From a virus (lineage: Duplodnaviria; Caudoviricetes): a stretch of 49,720 nucleotides of DNA. Made by a program: the position numbers and the translations under genes. Each line of letters opens with the position of its first letter. The first letter of the stretch is position 1. The DNA is taken from the IMG/VR virus record IMGVR_UViG_3300044795_000021, positions 1-49,720 of that record, one strand, 5' to 3'. Positions 21,446 through 44,334 of the stretch are shown piece after piece. The notes beneath the pieces are model-generated. The model saw only the letters and a list, made by a program, of their open reading frames with translations, ran no database searches and was not told the origin of the DNA.

Positions 21446-22330
21446 TCAGGCTTTCACTTTGGAAGAGAAGCGGCCGCCCCGACTTTGCCACTTCTCTATG
21501 ATCAACTTGAAGTTCGGATCTATATTCTGCGAAACGGGAAGGTTGCGGGTCTTGAGATCGGCCAGCGGGCTGCCGGTATCCCAATTCCACTTATCCTTCA
21601 CCCGCACCGTCAGGATGGTATCGGAGAACATGGATGGGATCTTGGGCGCGAGCTTCTGGCCGGGAGCGGAGGTCATCAGCTTGAGGCCGCCGAGCACGTC
21701 ATCCGTCTCGCGCTCCACATGAGCGATCAGGACGAAGTGACACTTGCAGCCGTCGCAACAATAGCGGATGAAGCGCTCCATCTGCTCCTGTACGATGCCG
21801 TAGTCTGGCTTGTCCCGGACCGGCTTGTTTCCGACCTGCATGGCCATGACGAAGTTGCCGAGTTCGGTGGTGCCATCTATCACAATGGCGCGGTCCGGCC
21901 CCCAGCCGTCAACGGCCCCGTAGTTGATCCCGGTCCGCTGATCCTGAAAGGAGTTCATGACCTTGAGGAGCTGCTCGAAGGGATTGTTGGCGGCTCGGTT
22001 CATGTCTTGGATCTTGCAGAGAGCGGAGAGCGTGCTGCCGGCGATCACCTGTGCGTTGAGAGCCATCGCGCCGAACCCCCCCTTCTGGGCAAGCTCGAGG
22101 GAATGCCAGTGGAGATTGTCCGGCGGCTTGGCGCCGCGGTCGGTCCAGTAGCCGAGAAGGGACTCCAGCCCCGTACCGAGGTTCAGGTAGAATACATCGA
22201 CTCCGGTGTCAACCAGCGTCCCTATGCAATAGGTCTTGCCGGTCCCCGCTGGGCCTTCCAGCAGGACATTCACCCCCTTCAGGAGGGACTGGTCCGCCGG
22301 CGACACTATACTCAGTTTCGGTTCTGTCAT
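21446..22330 (-). CDS. AAA (Sak4/AAA_24-like) P-loop ATPase
   Basis: VLLEGPAGTGKT, AIVIDG, FVLIAHVERE, GQKLAPKIPSMF. Confidence 0.85.
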   Translation of the reverse strand: MTEPKLSIVSPADQSLLKGVNVLLEGPAGTGKTYCIGTLVDTGVDVFYLNLGTGLESLLGYWTDRGAKPPDNLHWHSLELAQKGGFGAMALNAQVIAGSTLSALCKIQDMNRAANNPFEQLLKVMNSFQDQRTGINYGAVDGWGPDRAIVIDGTTELGNFVMAMQVGNKPVRDKPDYGIVQEQMERFIRYCCDGCKCHFVLIAHVERETDDVLGGLKLMTSAPGQKLAPKIPSMFSDTILTVRVKDKWNWDTGSPLADLKTRNLPVSQNIDPNFKLIIEKWQSRGGRFSSKVKA

Positions 22331-23330
22331 GGTGCGAGTTCTCCTGGCGCTTGAAGTGGGCGACGTGTAGATCGAACTCCCGCTGCTTCAGGGCGGGAGG
22401 GAGGAAGTCGATCAGATCCCAATCGACCGTCTGGCTGGCTCGGAGGTCGAGGAGGGAGCCGGGGACGACGCTTGGGTCGTGCGTGTGGCAGCGGGAGCAG
22501 CACTGGCCCTCCACGCTGAATGCCTCTCCGGAGCCTTCCTTGCGGATGATCGCCCAAACGTCCAGACACATCGGGCAGACCTTGGCGCGGGAATAAGGGG
22601 GCCAGCCCCGGCTGTCGGCGTCGGGCCGGACTATCTGGACGGCTGGGCCGTCATTCAGAATGATGGTGAAAGCGGGCACAGGCGAGTCTCCTGTCTTGGG
22701 ATAGAAGAAGCGGGCGATGTGGCGCGTTAGCGCCAGAGGGATCTTGGCTACGAGGGCGCTGCCGATCTTCCGCTCCGTGGATTGGGAGGAGAAATGAGAG
22801 ATGGAGATCTTCTCGCGGAACCAGTCACCGCCCTGCTTGGAGTCGGCGTAGCCGGGCGTGGGGAGCGCCGGCACGTCTCCCCAGAAGAAGAAGCTCCCGA
22901 AGTGGGCATCGGCAGGGCCGAGGAAGGTCTGTGCGCCCCGGACATTCTCCACCACGAGCGGCACCTTGTGGCCGGCGGCCTCGCTGGCCTCCTTCTGGAG
23001 CCTGAAGGCTGTCAGAAAGAGGGTGTTGTCCGGCGGAGGCAGGGCCTTGGCGCGCTTCCAGGGCATAGCTCGGTAGCTGTAAGCCTGACATGGCGGGCTG
23101 GCGACGATAAGGGTGGCGTCTCGGAACTGCTGGCCGTGAAGCGTCCGAACGTCCTGCTGGACAAGATGGCCCGGATAGCGGTGCTCCTTCCAGCGTTGTC
23201 TGGTGAGGTCGAAGCCGACCGTGAAGTAGCCCTCTGCGAGAAGGCCCTCTGCCCATCCTCCGAGGCCGCAAAAGAGGTCGATGGCCAGAGGGCGCGCGCA
23301 GGAACTGTATTTTGTGCTCCTATAACTCAC
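22209..23330 (-). CDS. Short C5-cytosine DNA methyltransferase reading in-frame into a Cys-rich (CPMC..CCSRC) domain
   Basis: IDLFCGLGG (motif I), ASPPCQ (IV), VVENV (VI); GTG start 23330 after GAGGA. Confidence 0.82.
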   Translation of the reverse strand: MSYRSTKYSSCARPLAIDLFCGLGGWAEGLLAEGYFTVGFDLTRQRWKEHRYPGHLVQQDVRTLHGQQFRDATLIVASPPCQAYSYRAMPWKRAKALPPPDNTLFLTAFRLQKEASEAAGHKVPLVVENVRGAQTFLGPADAHFGSFFFWGDVPALPTPGYADSKQGGDWFREKISISHFSSQSTERKIGSALVAKIPLALTRHIARFFYPKTGDSPVPAFTIILNDGPAVQIVRPDADSRGWPPYSRAKVCPMCLDVWAIIRKEGSGEAFSVEGQCCSRCHTHDPSVVPGSLLDLRASQTVDWDLIDFLPPALKQREFDLHVAHFKRQENSHHDRTETEYSVAGGPVPPEGGECPAGRPSGDRQDLLHRDAG

Positions 23331-25502: not shown

Positions 25503-25784
25503 TTAGGACTCCTCTCGGTTGATCTTCGCGTCGATCCAGACTCGCAACTCGTCGAGCGGCGTGTCTTTCTTAATCCGGGTGAAGTACCAACGGAAGCGCA
25601 TCCCATCTTGGCTCTCCTGCGAGAGCAGCTCGCGATAGAGGGCCTTCTCGGCTAGGCGCTTCGCGTAGTCCTCTGCAATCCGTTCCGCCTCCGATTTGCC
25701 GGCGCGGGCGCGTTTCGCCTCCTCGACCTCGTTGGCGCGTTGCATAGCGCGGAGGAGTATGGCTTGGAGGCGATCAGCCGGCAT
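25503..25784 (-). CDS. Hypothetical protein
   Basis: 93-aa helical ORF directly downstream of a sigma70-like promoter. Confidence 0.6.
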   Translation of the reverse strand: MPADRLQAILLRAMQRANEVEEAKRARAGKSEAERIAEDYAKRLAEKALYRELLSQESQDGMRFRWYFTRIKKDTPLDELRVWIDAKINREES

Positions 25785-25808: not shown

Positions 25809-25823
25809 TTATATGGTGTATAA
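25809..25823. promoter_or_regulatory. Operator-like palindrome TTATA-N5-TATAA (copy 2)
   Basis: TTATAtggtgTATAA overlapping the -10 box of the minus-strand promoter. Confidence 0.7.
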
Positions 25824-25848
25824 TACGCCCATTTTTCCCGGCTGGCAA
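25820..25848 (-). promoter_or_regulatory. Sigma70-like promoter for the replication operon
   Basis: TTGCCA-N17-TATTAT on the minus strand, just downstream of a terminator. Confidence 0.7.
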
Positions 25849-25887: not shown

Positions 25888-25918
25888 AAAAAAGAAGGCG
25901 GGCTTTCGCCCGCCTTCT
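25888..25918 (-). terminator. Intrinsic terminator
   Basis: AGAAGGCGGGC-GAAA-GCCCGCCTTCT followed by a T-run on the minus strand. Confidence 0.88.
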
Positions 25919-26165
25919 CCGCCCCCCGGACTCGCAGACGGAGGACTCGGCCCGGAGCCAACACCGGGGCCTGGGACGGCGTGCCGGGAACAATCGCCAG
26001 CGGGTCTATTTCACCAGATTGAAGTAACCGCCAGCTTCACCACGGCCAGAATCGTGCCCTACGGGTTTTCCTCCGGGCCAGAGGTCTCTCCTTCGGTGCC
26101 GCTACGCACAGACCAGCCATGCGGCCCTTCCCAGAGAGCTTGGTGTGCCGTCCACCTAGTCGGGA
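25919..26165 (-). ncRNA. Putative multi-domain structured RNA (Y-RNA/Yrl-like module plus anti-RBS hairpin)
   Basis: About 245 nt with no credible ORF, between a stop codon and a terminator. Closing helix GGACGGC/GCCGUCC (26147-26153 with 25974-25980) and several hairpins. Confidence 0.55.
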
Positions 26166-26840
26166 TCAGGCGGCCAGACCCTTGAGAGAGGCCTTGAGAG
26201 CAGCCGTGTCCACGTGAGTCGCCTTCGCGGCCTTCGCGGCCTCAATGGCGTCTACGAGCGGCTTGATCTCCGGGTCCATTCTCAATTGCTGTTTTTGCTG
26301 CGGAGACCAGTCGCGGATGTGGTCTCGGACTTCCTGCGCAGTGCGCCCGGTGAACTCCATCAGGGCCTGGAGCAGGACCGAGGTGCCAGCCATCCCGCCG
26401 CCGACTCGGGCCTTCGCCCACTCCCCGCCCATGAGTCGCTCATGGAGGCGGTCGGTGGTCTCTGCCCAGTCGTCGAGGTCCGGAGCGTCCTCGCCGGCGA
26501 GTTCGTCTCCGTACTTCTGCTTGCCGCCGTGGCCGGTGAAGCGGAGCGCGAGCGCCGGATTCAGTGGGTACGTGCGCGTGGCTCCATTCCGAAAGTCCAT
26601 CCGAATGGCCAGATCGTTGATGGTGATACCGGCGAGCTGCTCGTTGGTCAGGTCATCCAGCACCTGCCACTCGCCGCTCGGGAGGCGAGCCATCACGTCC
26701 TTGTAGAAGCGGGCCTTGCCGACGAACTCGACTTCGCGCCCGTCGGTCATCGTGACCTTCTCGGCGTCTCGCTCTTTCTTGCCGCTGGCCTTGCCGGCGG
26801 GCGCAGTGGGAACTGCGACTTCTGCTGCGATTGCGTTCAT
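26166..26840 (-). CDS. Conserved-looking phage hypothetical protein (paralog of 34113-34775)
   Basis: AGGAG RBS; own promoter; C-terminal half aligns with the 34113 protein. Confidence 0.75.
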   Translation of the reverse strand: MNAIAAEVAVPTAPAGKASGKKERDAEKVTMTDGREVEFVGKARFYKDVMARLPSGEWQVLDDLTNEQLAGITINDLAIRMDFRNGATRTYPLNPALALRFTGHGGKQKYGDELAGEDAPDLDDWAETTDRLHERLMGGEWAKARVGGGMAGTSVLLQALMEFTGRTAQEVRDHIRDWSPQQKQQLRMDPEIKPLVDAIEAAKAAKATHVDTAALKASLKGLAA

Positions 26841-26915
26841 CTGGGATCTATCTCCTCTGAGAGTGCCGGCCCCTTTATCGGGCGGCGGGCCGGTCAAATT
26901 CCGCATTGCAGGCGT

Positions 26916-26944
26916 ATGATGGCACAACGCGGGGCGCGTGTCAA
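26916..26944 (-). promoter_or_regulatory. Sigma70-like promoter
   Basis: TTGACA-N17-CATCAT with TG at the extended -10 position. Confidence 0.7.
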
Positions 26945-30276: not shown

Positions 30277-30524
30277 GTGCCCCACTCCGCCGGCACGAGG
30301 TCGGGGTAGTTCAGCCGGAACCACTCGCGGGTGTCGGGGTTCTCTACGCCTCGGAGCGTGCGCCAGCCGGTGGCTCCGGACTTGTAGATGGCGTCGATGG
30401 GAGCGCGATCGTCGGCGGCGTGGGCCTGCTCCATCTCGATGTAGTAGTCGTAGGAGCGGAGCATACGGCCCCACGCTGCGATGGCGCGGTAGTCGGACGG
30501 TTGGGTGTGGATGATCTCAGTCAT
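30273..30524 (-). CDS. Hypothetical protein
   Basis: Preceded by AACCAGGAGACTCGCACCA. Confidence 0.65.
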   Translation of the reverse strand: MTEIIHTQPSDYRAIAAWGRMLRSYDYYIEMEQAHAADDRAPIDAIYKSGATGWRTLRGVENPDTREWFRLNYPDLVPAEWGT

Positions 30525-30729
30525 TGGTGCGAGTCTCCTGGTTGGGAAGCGGATTCACGTCGTCTGGGTACACATCTATGATGTGCTGAAGGATAACGCA
30601 GTCGATCAGGTTGGCGATATCTCTTCGCTTGTCCCAGTCGATCCGCGTACAGGGATCGTTGAGCAGCTTGGAGATGCCGCGGAGCTTTTCGACTTGCTCG
30701 GGCGCAAGCAGGTAGCCGACTGGCTTCAT
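30517..30729 (-). CDS. Hypothetical protein
   Basis: GGAGG RBS; MKPVGYLLAPEQ. Confidence 0.55.
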   Translation of the reverse strand: MKPVGYLLAPEQVEKLRGISKLLNDPCTRIDWDKRRDIANLIDCVILQHIIDVYPDDVNPLPNQETRTND

Positions 30730-31247
30730 TTGTTCGCCTCCAGGACGGTTTGCCGGATCAAGGAAGCTATTATACGCGGGTCGCCGGCGGCTGGCAACGG
30801 GTCTTTGCCGGTTCGAAGCGCCAAGATCGAGGCCTTCTCGGGGGAGACCGGCAGGTCGAGGCTGCGATCGGGCCGGAGGCTGGCGTGCAGGCGGCGAATG
30901 CCGGCAGCCCACTCCTCCGGAGGCTGGCGTGTCGGTTCTGGCTCCGGCGGTCGGCCGAGCCGTTCGAAGAGCCGGGCCTGGCTCTCGGCCAAGACGGAGG
31001 CCGGCGGTTCGCCCGCAGCGCTTCGCGCTGCGCCGAAGGCGGCTTCGAGTTCCTCGTCTGTCAGAGTGGGCTTGAATGCCTTCCAGGCCTCGTTCCGGAC
31101 GATCCGGCCGATCTGGGTGATAGAGTAGCCGGAGATGGCGGCGAGCTGGCGCTGGGTCGCTCCGCGCTCGTACAGCTCTCTGATCTTCAGGATGACCTCC
31201 GGCCGGCTGTGGGCGGCTCGGAAGTTACCGTGGGCGAACTTCGTCAT
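30726..31247 (-). CDS. Helix-turn-helix DNA-binding protein
   Basis: IRELYERGATQRQLAAISGYSITQIGRIVRNEAW; AGGAG RBS; operator palindrome immediately upstream. Confidence 0.75.
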   Translation of the reverse strand: MTKFAHGNFRAAHSRPEVILKIRELYERGATQRQLAAISGYSITQIGRIVRNEAWKAFKPTLTDEELEAAFGAARSAAGEPPASVLAESQARLFERLGRPPEPEPTRQPPEEWAAGIRRLHASLRPDRSLDLPVSPEKASILALRTGKDPLPAAGDPRIIASLIRQTVLEANK

Positions 31248-31260
31248 CGACGTGCTCCTG

Positions 31261-31275
31261 TTATATGGCCTATAA
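31261..31275. promoter_or_regulatory. Operator-like palindrome TTATA-N5-TATAA (copy 3)
   Basis: TTATAtggccTATAA, 13 bp upstream of the HTH gene start. Confidence 0.7.
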
Positions 31276-31332
31276 TGCGACCAAGAAATCAGCCTCGGAG
31301 GGCCGGCTGTCCGGCCCTCCTGAGCTGCCTCC

Positions 31333-31965: not shown

Positions 31966-32202
31966 TTACTCCTGTGCGTCGCGGAAGAATTGATCGCGCT
32001 TCTCGTTCCATATCTTCGTGACGAGCTGCTTCAGCTCGAGCCAGTCCTCGTACGCCACGGAGGCGTACTCGAGGGTGGCTTCCGGGAAGCGGTCGTGGTG
32101 GCGGAGAGCATAGTCCAAGACCTCGAGAGAGGAGTTGATGATGCGCTCTACGCTATTGGTCAGGACCGCGTGGCGTTCGGCTGGTGTGTATTCGAAGGCC
32201 AT
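31966..32202 (-). CDS. Hypothetical protein
   Basis: 78 aa; TAATG coupling. Confidence 0.6.
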   Translation of the reverse strand: MAFEYTPAERHAVLTNSVERIINSSLEVLDYALRHHDRFPEATLEYASVAYEDWLELKQLVTKIWNEKRDQFFRDAQE

Positions 32203-32554: not shown

Positions 32555-32761
32555 CTAGCGGATGGAGATGGAGGCGATCAAGTCGCGGAGCTGATCTCTG
32601 TAGAGCAGCACCGCTATCCGCACCACAGTCGGGTCGCCGTGGTAATTGCGGAAAGACTTGATGGGCAGCTCCGATGCCATATCCTTCAGCTCTTGGCAGG
32701 CGGTCTCAAAGGACCGGGTGTTGCTGTCTTGATCGTATGTAGAGACGGGCATGTTAGCCAT
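32555..32761 (-). CDS. Hypothetical protein
   Basis: Preceded by GGAGGACTCGCATCA. Confidence 0.6.
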   Translation of the reverse strand: MANMPVSTYDQDSNTRSFETACQELKDMASELPIKSFRNYHGDPTVVRIAVLLYRDQLRDLIASISIR

Positions 32762-32791
32762 TGATGCGAGTCCTCCGTTGGTGGAAAGTCC

Positions 32792-33222: not shown

Positions 33223-33421
33223 GATCGTATCCCTCCCCCCGAACGGGGCGCAGTTCGCGGACTTTGCCGGCCAGGACTCCGTGGTCGAGGAGCGCCGTTT
33301 GGAAGACGTGGACCGCGTCCGCCTTGGCGTACGCCAAGGGCGAGATGCGGACCCAACGGCCGTTGCGCTTCTCGAAGATGGAGTAGAGTCGGCGGTGCTG
33401 GTTCGGAATGAAGATGGTCAT
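33215..33421 (-). CDS. Hypothetical protein
   Basis: AACCAGGAG RBS. Confidence 0.6.
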   Translation of the reverse strand: MTIFIPNQHRRLYSIFEKRNGRWVRISPLAYAKADAVHVFQTALLDHGVLAGKVRELRPVRGEGYDHG

Positions 33422-33436: not shown

Positions 33437-33559
33437 TTAGACGGGCTGGCAGTGGTGATAGGCGTCGAGTGCGTCAGCGTACGTCTCGTACCAGCCGATG
33501 ACGCGCTTGCCGACGGACAAGACGTAGAACCCGTACATCTTCACGATTTGGTACTTCAT
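33437..33559 (-). CDS. Small hypothetical protein (40 aa)
   Basis: GGAGACTCGCATCA leader; MKYQIVKMYGFYVLSVG. Confidence 0.6.
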   Translation of the reverse strand: MKYQIVKMYGFYVLSVGKRVIGWYETYADALDAYHHCQPV

Positions 33560-33627
33560 TGATGCGAGTCTCCGAAGTGTTGAAGGTGAGTTGCGAAGCG
33601 GGCGGGCGGACCCCCGGCCCAATCCGG

Positions 33628-34112: not shown

Positions 34113-34775
34113 TCAGAGATTCAGCAGGCTGGCTTTCAGGTCGGCTGCGCTGCTACCCTCAGCTTCCGCTGACTTCGCTCGCGCTTCTCTGAGCGAATCG
34201 ATCGTGGGCTTCAGGTCCGGGTCCACCATCAGCTTCTCCCGCTCCTTGACCGACATGGAGCGGACGCGCGTCTCCACCTTGTCCAGAGGCTTCTTCCAGA
34301 CGGCCGCGATAGCTTCGATAAGCAGCCGGGTATCGGCGCTGAGGCTGCTGCCTGCGCTCGCCTTCTCCCAGAGTCCGTTTAGGAGTCCAGAGACGGAGTC
34401 ATTGAGCGCTGCCCACTTCGCCTGCGGGCTGGCGCTAACCTTCTTGTCCCCTGAGCCGCTGGTGCTCAGCGCCGCGTCTGCGGTGGGCTTGCGCTGCGCT
34501 CCGAGCGCCATGAACTTCGTCTTTATGTCGGTGCTCAGGTCCGCGTAGCGCATGCTAATCGGAGCCAGAAGGGCCTTCGTCTCGAAGCCCTTGCCGTCTT
34601 TCAGCTTCGCGCCCTTGACGCGGACGAAGAAGGTCGTGCCGTCTGAGTCCTGAGTGTAAGTGATATCACTGTCCCCTCTGAATTTCGGCTCAGCGTTCGG
34701 AGGGAATGTCACGATGGCCGGGGGCGGAGTCTGAGCAGATGCGCTCTGCTCTGGCGTCTTTGATGTTTCGTTCAT
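34113..34775 (-). CDS. Hypothetical protein (paralog of 26166-26840)
   Basis: GGAGACTCGCATC leader; C-terminal alignment with the 26166 protein. Confidence 0.75.
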   Translation of the reverse strand: MNETSKTPEQSASAQTPPPAIVTFPPNAEPKFRGDSDITYTQDSDGTTFFVRVKGAKLKDGKGFETKALLAPISMRYADLSTDIKTKFMALGAQRKPTADAALSTSGSGDKKVSASPQAKWAALNDSVSGLLNGLWEKASAGSSLSADTRLLIEAIAAVWKKPLDKVETRVRSMSVKEREKLMVDPDLKPTIDSLREARAKSAEAEGSSAADLKASLLNL

Positions 34776-34813
34776 GATGCGAGTCTCCCGCGCCCACGTC
34801 GGGCGCATCTAGT

Positions 34814-41685: not shown

Positions 41686-41845
41686 GAACCCCCAGGTGTG
41701 TACGACGGCTAACATATCGGCTGTTACGCAGCTTCGCGCGTTCTTGGAGATTATCGAGATAGATGTGGAGGAGCTGAATGGAGAAGATAGAGAATCGCTC
41801 GGGATTCAGGCCCGTAGGGAAGGCGGTGCTGCTGAGAGCGTTTGA
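41558..41845 (+). CDS. Small hypothetical protein
   Basis: GTG start after a purine-rich RBS; typical post-portal small helical protein. Confidence 0.55.
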   Translation: MKVTKEELEELKQSPAGRALWRYLRARVTGLQDQWAEGRFNSENPQVCTTANISAVTQLRAFLEIIEIDVEELNGEDRESLGIQARREGGAAESV

Positions 41846-42107
41846 GCTGGCGGAGCGCCGGATGGTGGTCCACCTCCCGGACGAGGTGGAGATGAGCAGC
41901 GCGACCTGCGACACGCAGGGGATTGTGGTGGAGATAGGACCGGATTGCTGGAACGGCCCAAGCGAGACGCCTCGGGCGAAGGTGGGGGATAAGGTGCTGA
42001 TAACCCGCTTCAGCGGCGGAATGCTTAGGGGCAACGATGGATATATCTATCGGATGATCCCTGACCATGCGATATACGCGGTGAAAGAGGAAGACGGTCA
42101 TGGCTGA
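41778..42107 (+). CDS. groES: GroES/Cpn10-like co-chaperonin
   Basis: FRPVGKAVLL...GIVVEIGP...KVGDKVLITRFSG...DG..YRMI....IYAV. Confidence 0.82.
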   Translation: MEKIENRSGFRPVGKAVLLRAFELAERRMVVHLPDEVEMSSATCDTQGIVVEIGPDCWNGPSETPRAKVGDKVLITRFSGGMLRGNDGYIYRMIPDHAIYAVKEEDGHG

Positions 42108-43686: not shown

Positions 43687-44334
43687 ATGGCCGCACCTGT
43701 AATCGGCGCAAATGCCAATAAGCTAAACGGCTTCACTCCAGTCGGATATCTGAATGCTGCCGATTGGGACGGTCGAGGCCGAGTCTACACAATCCCCGCT
43801 ACAAACACTAACGCGATCGCGGTAGGAGATCCGGTTCGGCAGCTGGCGGGGCTGGATGCCTCCTACCAGTACGCCTGTATCGACATAGGAGCGCCGGGCG
43901 TGCCGCTCGTCGGAGTGGTATTGGCGCTCAGCACCAACAAGCGGGGGATGGGTCCCTGGGTGGACCCGACGCAGCTGAACACGATCCTCCACCGGCCCGC
44001 CACCGCCACGCCGACCGACTGGTACGCGCTCGTCGGAGACGATCCGAACATAGTCTATGAGGGACAGGAGCAGACGACGGGGAACGTCGCCGGTACAAAC
44101 TTCACCGCCGCAGCCGCCGGCAAGAATGCCAACTTCGGGCTAAGCCCTCTGACGGGTCCGGGTTGGCTTAGCCAAGCCTACGTTGACAACGGCACGGCTG
44201 CTGCAACCACCGCCACCTATAGTCTCCGTCTGCTGAGCTTGAAGCAGAGCATAGACAACTATCCTGGCCCCTGGCAGAGATGGTGGTTTATCATTCAGAA
44301 TCACGCTTATTGCAGTCGGCCTGCAGGCGTCTGA
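43687..44334 (+). CDS. Putative capsid decoration/cement protein
   Basis: GFTPVGYL, IAVGDPV, DDPNIVYE; immediately upstream of the MCP. Confidence 0.65.
   Translation: MAAPVIGANANKLNGFTPVGYLNAADWDGRGRVYTIPATNTNAIAVGDPVRQLAGLDASYQYACIDIGAPGVPLVGVVLALSTNKRGMGPWVDPTQLNTILHRPATATPTDWYALVGDDPNIVYEGQEQTTGNVAGTNFTAAAAGKNANFGLSPLTGPGWLSQAYVDNGTAAATTATYSLRLLSLKQSIDNYPGPWQRWWFIIQNHAYCSRPAGV

Follow-up and report, generated by a model that had tools for sequence, protein, structure and literature searches.

The window, by which we mean the whole stretch of DNA that was analysed, is a complete IMG/VR phage record of 49.7 kb. Terminase, portal and tail genes occupy its plus strand; the minus strand carries the genes for polymerase, primase, helicase and methylases, besides numerous small ones. 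Searches of the window and four relatives for an integrase or resolvase came back empty (no match to PF00589 or PF00239 in 5/5 genomes), and a plasmid or carrier state is possible for these phages. A GroES-like gene adjoins the portal gene (41778-42107, plus strand). The features considered here lie on the minus strand, at a gene that we call the anchor gene and at a structured element that forms its 3' end:

26916..26944, minus strand: anchor-gene promoter, sigma70-like (TTGACA-17-CATCAT, TG), with similar sites in 6 relatives
26166..26840, minus strand: anchor gene, 224 aa, of no known family by homolog and profile searches; throughout the phage family it ends in the element
25949..25971, minus strand: P1 hairpin, immediately 5' of the flank; position constant and sequence free (judged by eye in the clade, uncounted)
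25945..25949, minus strand: 5' flank CGAGU (family form C(A/G)AGU), likely structural, not antisense
25923..25944, minus strand: P2 hairpin, stem 25944-25939 with 25928-25923, backed by stem covariation
25929..25938, minus strand: P2 loop, putative antisense seed with core UGCGAGUC; it complements, and covaries with, the leader tag GACUCGCA
25917..25922, minus strand: 3' flank GCGGAG (family form GCGG(A/G)), from comparison with relatives
25888..25918, minus strand: intrinsic terminator with U tract, predicted RNA 3' end, from the fold and a promoter/terminator survey

The element (25971-25888) is positioned 215 nt past the anchor-gene stop codon, and the minimum free energy fold gives its parts in the order P1, flank, P2, flank and terminator (z -2.4; 4 of 200 shuffles were equally stable). 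An initial annotation of this DNA had quoted the minus strand from 25949 to 25919 correctly, but the hairpin it drew there, CUCCGUC with GGCGGAG, gives way in both the fold and the relatives to CCUCCG with CGGGGG, closing a 10-nt loop, UCUGCGAGUC. P2 did not form from the opposite strand in a fold check. Across seven sequences, 39 of 40 stem cells of P2 are paired, nine with changes on both sides; with seven related sequences this is a modest test, in which none of 500 shuffles and no slid register equalled the observed pairing. In the wider family, G-U outnumbers A-C in the stems (12 versus 4), and a U tract lies downstream in 41/59. The flanks C(A/G)AGU and GCGG(A/G) are retained in relatives with another loop and tag, and are therefore likely structural. 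Two relatives (L056, L060) retain flanks and stem around a loop of only 4 nt and may have lost the seed.

A DNA search of the phage collection returned no relative of the element region. In close relatives the 3' UTR is unalignable or missing and the order of the element parts is unchanged, the element beginning at the stop codon in L004, L005, L006, L016 and L018. Because several relatives have no gap between stop codon and element, and because no promoter-like site was found on the minus strand between the anchor promoter and the terminator, the predicted RNA is the 3' end of an mRNA, whether released from it or not.

The initial annotation had proposed two antisense segments. One of them, UGCGAGUCC (25936-25928), is indeed complementary to the leader tag. 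The other, a 12-mer at 25949-25938, does complement 32767-32778 perfectly, but it consists of flank and stem, and its predicted opening cost is 7.8 kcal/mol as against 0.7 for the loop seed. In six relatives the counterpart of the 12-mer matches leaders of the same genome over no more than 6-7 nt, and L108 has the same CCUCCG stem with a tag that is not complementary to it. The predicted working seed is the P2 loop, not the 12-mer.

Leader tags in the window

The heptamer ACTCGCA occurs 15 times in the window against 7.5 expected, a count reached in none of 100 shuffles. Six of its eight minus-strand copies lie between the Shine-Dalgarno (SD) sequence and a start codon, compared with none of the seven plus-strand copies. 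Over 47 starts listed by hand (one further start was left out, having no start codon), loop pairing of at least 7 nt upstream of the start was found for 7 of 30 minus-strand (early/middle) leaders and 0 of 17 plus-strand (late) leaders. These seven, together with a possible eighth site, are the following, identified by loop pairing except where other evidence is given:

34775..34785, minus strand: tagged leader of the gene at 34113-34775, an early paralog of the anchor, 8 bp to the loop; also by paralog search
33559..33570, minus strand: tagged leader of a 40-aa early ORF, 8 bp
32761..32778, minus strand: tagged leader of a 68-aa early ORF, 9 bp to the loop and 12 bp to flank plus stem
30524..30535, minus strand: tagged leader of an 83-aa ORF, 8 bp
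22679..22688, minus strand: tagged GTG start, 7 bp, in frame within a longer methyltransferase ORF; start uncertain
22330..22339, minus strand: tagged leader of an AAA_24/Sak4-like gene, 7 bp; the ortholog is also tagged in L004 and L006
19966..19973, minus strand: tagged leader of a ParB-N/DNA methylase gene, 7 bp; the ortholog is also tagged in L006, L008 and L009
16031..16038, minus strand: tag copy overlapping the primase ORF at its first codons, 8 bp; possible eighth site

Pairing in the window amounts to just 7-9 bp, and two untagged leaders, at 32202 and 337, rank among the tagged ones by duplex energy.

Covariation of loop and tag

Within the clade of the window, the six records with a GCGAGUC loop have GACUCGC leaders (five in the window, two in G001, three each in G002 and G004, two in L004 and one in L005) and no GGACUCA leader. 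The two records with a UUGAGUCC loop have GGACUCA leaders (four in G003, six in L009) and no GACUCGC leader, and these two are the nearest kin of the window on the protein tree. The initial annotation had suggested that one RNA loop addresses a set of identically tagged leaders, and this covariation, together with that in the wider family, strongly supports it; rather than keeping the tag with the antisense segment gone, relatives switch loop and tag jointly.

The wider family was assembled around the anchor protein, for which 700 homologs were found among 8000 candidates scored, with 193 viral loci, of which 80 were kept. The protein matched no PHROG or Pfam family, and Atlas gave just unnamed viral clusters; its invariant residues are H, Q, K, D and R. 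For one homolog (P0041), a confident model (mean pLDDT 88.8) matched nothing in the PDB at E 0.001, the best Z being 4.9 across 44 residues (rmsd 2.2), and the fold search returned two unnamed viral models at E <0.001; the missing PDB match is no proof of a new fold. The early paralog in the window (34113-34775) has its equivalent in 5/5 relatives searched, each of which contains a second family member.

A CUCC inside a hairpin loop, at most 150 nt from the stop codon, was found in 47 of 87 distinct 3' regions. The 40 loci without a loop seed by this CTCC rule include the clade of the window itself, whose loops are without CUCC, and among held-out loci 13 of 25 lacked one. We defined the cognate 8-mer as the complement of the loop CUCC plus 4 nt and sought it before starts, with permutation of labels as the null. 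Over the 43 seeded loci with at least 6 kb of DNA (27 seeds; DNA partial), 48 cognate 8-mers preceded starts against 4.7 expected (p 5e-5), and with one vote per seed the figures are 21.5 and 2.4. The unchanged rule, applied to 25 held-out contigs that were fetched after the first set (12 of them seeded; one, L129, near-identical to an earlier locus), gave 11 against 1.0 expected (p 3e-4). It should be noted that only the held-out test is blind, since the seed rule was chosen after the first set had been viewed.

Kinship was addressed by comparing the own seed of each locus with that of its nearest neighbour with another seed: over 61 loci the own seed wins 36 times, loses 3 times and ties 22 times (sums 85 versus 4). 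Neighbours recur in this comparison, so that its loci are not independent, and four reciprocal near pairs agree with it. Each of ten different tags has at least two cognate starts. Of the 58 cognate copies that lie on the gene strand, 48 are start-associated, as are 4 of the 11 on the opposite strand, and complementarity is limited to GGAG plus 4-6 nt, beyond which it falls to background. In one complete genome (MW202489) the 8-mer has four sense copies, all preceding starts, and a single antisense copy, which is the loop. An earlier test over whole regions was noisy (138 versus 56 non-cognate, 78 loci).

A survey of tagged starts, for which the hairpins of L041 (where the automatic rule chose the wrong one) and L042 were assigned by hand, yielded 117, with 49 upstream of the element, 27 in the first gene behind the terminator and 41 further downstream. 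A promoter-like site lies within 160 nt of 29 of the 117, and of 70 among the 782 starts without a tag. The same genes stay targets although their tags differ: another protein family is tagged in 19 loci and the early paralog of the anchor gene in 12, always by the local tag. This paralog, 2.6-8.6 kb upstream, is the most constant upstream target. In L042, where the element lies 1.4 kb downstream past inserted genes, nine starts are tagged.

About half of the relatives show no loop-tag pair. A start with the cognate 8-mer was absent from 20 of the 43 seeded loci and from 6 of the 12 held-out seeded loci, for both of which the DNA is partial, and the pair is absent over the 41 annotated starts of PP438425, the only cultured relative. 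Apart from that phage, the family is uncultured, and it is widespread.

Proposed mechanism and alternatives

On comparative sequence grounds, the loop-tag system is real and selected. The structured 3'-end RNA likely pairs in trans with the tagged early/middle leaders and likely blocks ribosome loading, a reading to which we give a probability of about two in three; a trans-acting translational repressor is the most likely form of the system. A host-type promoter would drive the anchor mRNA, whose terminator-capped 3' end would accumulate, whole or after cleavage. The loop would then form 7-10 base pairs over the spacer between SD and start codon or, in most relatives, over GGAG itself. Pairing of 7-10 bp over the SD or the spacer blocks 30S loading, as is established for sRNAs. 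The accumulating RNA would in this way damp the tagged genes and act as a delayed negative control of early functions, although the timing is not evident from the sequence, as the anchor promoter seems just as early as the genes it would control. We infer pairing in trans because 49 of the 117 tags are found upstream of the element, at distances of up to 8.6 kb, and because the next gene in the window is untagged.

The position of the element behind one gene could have another meaning, namely that the hairpin guides the anchor protein, which would bind the constant flanks and be directed by the variable loop to tagged leaders for repression or cutting. The linkage of element and gene across the family, which survives the insertion of other genes in L008/L009 and L042, would fit this proposal, as would flanks conserved whatever the seed, the short seed of the window and the invariant H, Q, K, D and R residues of the anchor protein. 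However, a shared promoter and terminator would also explain the linkage, many relatives have the seed within a terminator loop that lacks the flanks, and many anchor genes are without an element, so that we regard a guided protein as unlikely. Just as doubtful is its extension, in which the anchor protein and the hairpin of its own message would form a reprogrammable RNA-guided regulator; lineages would rewrite guide and tags and so keep private address codes, possibly as exclusion groups between co-infecting relatives. The pairing may also be real and act mainly in cis, the loop folding upon read-through onto the leader of the next gene. The 27 tagged starts in the first gene behind the terminator would suit such an arrangement, which is nevertheless quite improbable given that neither the window nor its clade has a tag on the next gene, that 49 tags are upstream and another 41 beyond the first gene, and that the next gene has its own promoter past the terminator.

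Covariation does not give the sign of regulation, and in the clade of the window most of GGAG is spared by the loop, so that pairing might instead activate or stabilise the tagged messages, or the tagged leaders might titrate the RNA. We see little chance of either, because most relatives have a loop that pairs over GGAG itself, for which the established outcome with sRNAs is blocked initiation. Early messages of T4 are controlled by proteins that recognise initiation regions (parts of PMC3014915 and PMC1702504), and the tag could likewise be a protein site, of the RegA/RegB kind or a DNA operator, with its inverted copy as a decoy or an extra DNA site. The chance of this is slimmer still: the tags are strand- and start-specific, the lone inverted copy lies within a loop that covaries and that belongs to the coding strand, P2 being absent from the other strand, and a change of specificity would be needed for each of 10 tag types. 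Seeds are short and labels are common to kin, which might suggest chance or a base composition shared by relatives; the permutation, held-out and nearest-neighbour controls make this explanation close to negligible.

Comparison with known systems and further features

The C4 RNA of phages P1 and P7 is cut from a longer transcript, and short segments in its loops pair with a ribosome-binding region (as described in part of PMC5320573). Our element is similar in silico, with a loop that pairs over the ribosome-binding region and a loop sequence that sets specificity. It differs in having one covarying seed loop, compared with the a'/b' pair of C4 in a three-stem fold, and a 5' flank that does not follow the tag; in forming the 3' end of an early/middle gene, the phages having yielded no integrase; and in addressing about seven unlinked leaders as opposed to an immunity operon. 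Rfam gave no gathering-level match in the window or ten relatives, and the C4 model gave none at E up to 10 in the window or up to 5 in L007. By its predicted pairing, then, the element works like C4 and is not a member of the C4 family. OppZ and CarZ of Vibrio cholerae derive from 3' UTRs, share an mRNA terminator, inhibit translation by pairing and are autoregulatory (sections of PMC7398697). Our element likewise shares the terminator of an mRNA; in contrast to their self-pairing, just one (L041) of the 45 loci with tagged starts has a tag on the leader of the anchor gene itself, and that leader is untagged in the window. T4 shuts down a set of early messages with proteins, RegB and RegA, by way of a feature common to the initiation regions (PMC1702504 and PMC3014915, in part), whereas the recogniser here appears to be an RNA loop.

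A further comparison is with the start-associated sequence (SAS) motif of Cluster K mycobacteriophages, which lies in one orientation over the SD of non-structural genes and whose function was left open (Pope et al., PMC3203893, in part). Like SAS, the tag of the window is repeated in one orientation beside starts of non-structural genes; it differs from the 13-bp SAS consensus, the phages are unrelated, and the tag has switched here among at least 10 sequences. The same source, in the part used here, notes a single inverted SAS copy in K1 phages. We found that this copy is a 10-nt hairpin loop, intergenic and on the strand of the genes, in Anaya (L180:31871) and CrimD (L183:30836), and the stretch was matched in 130 mycobacteriophage records. 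The right parts of Pixie and TM4 contained no such loop and no run of at least 9 nt, TM4 having one unpaired 8-nt match inside a gene. Judged by these genomes, Cluster K1 mycobacteriophages have the loop-tag layout for SAS, and because they are cultured they offer a testable answer to the 2011 question of SAS function.

No paper on a phage RNA complementary to a tag common to several starts turned up in a literature search. The searched part of the PMC10690425 supplements (10,006 viral candidate RNAs) did not contain six loop strings, and the hairpin may still be listed there without a function. If our reading is correct, phages without a detected integrase use a single RNA loop and a tag that can be rewritten to run a multi-gene regulon, a task given to proteins in T4, and the family supplies at least 10 natural loop-tag pairs usable for swaps and for orthogonal translation switches.

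The region contains further candidate RNA features. Upstream of the seed hairpin and less than 200 nt from the anchor stop, nine loci (L007, L037, L045, L061, L083, L088, L097, L129 and L139) have a hairpin of the form UGAC...GGAAAGAC or GAAUAGA(A)C; we take it to resemble a C4-type stem, but L007 is without a C4 match in Rfam. The P1 loop of the window (25954-25962, minus strand) complements GGAGCCAAC, which has three minus-strand copies in the early region (33433, 32870 and 32555), one of them the leader of the gene at 33421, and P1 could be a second, lineage-specific seed. The same 3' UTR contains a second structured RNA (25983-26046, minus strand) whose ends are fixed and whose inner stem is swapped (window, L008, L009 and L173-L178). 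It is present in five other phage contigs, in three of them just 3' of a sub-threshold match to YrlA (Y RNA-like), and may be a YrlB-like RNA or a processing signal.

At the other end of the anchor message, a 5'-UTR hairpin (26866-26893, minus strand) with a large loop, GCC...AAAG, is retained in the clade and in some distant relatives and may be a protein-binding site. An 11-mer, ACCGGCCCGCC, has three copies on the early strand (33972, 33863 and 26894, minus strand), one of them at this hairpin, and a plus-strand copy at 43991. Finally, two similar promoter-like stretches (31251-31283 and 25811-25848, minus strand) precede the genes at 31247, which has a weak HTH_3 match (E 0.0024), and at 25784.
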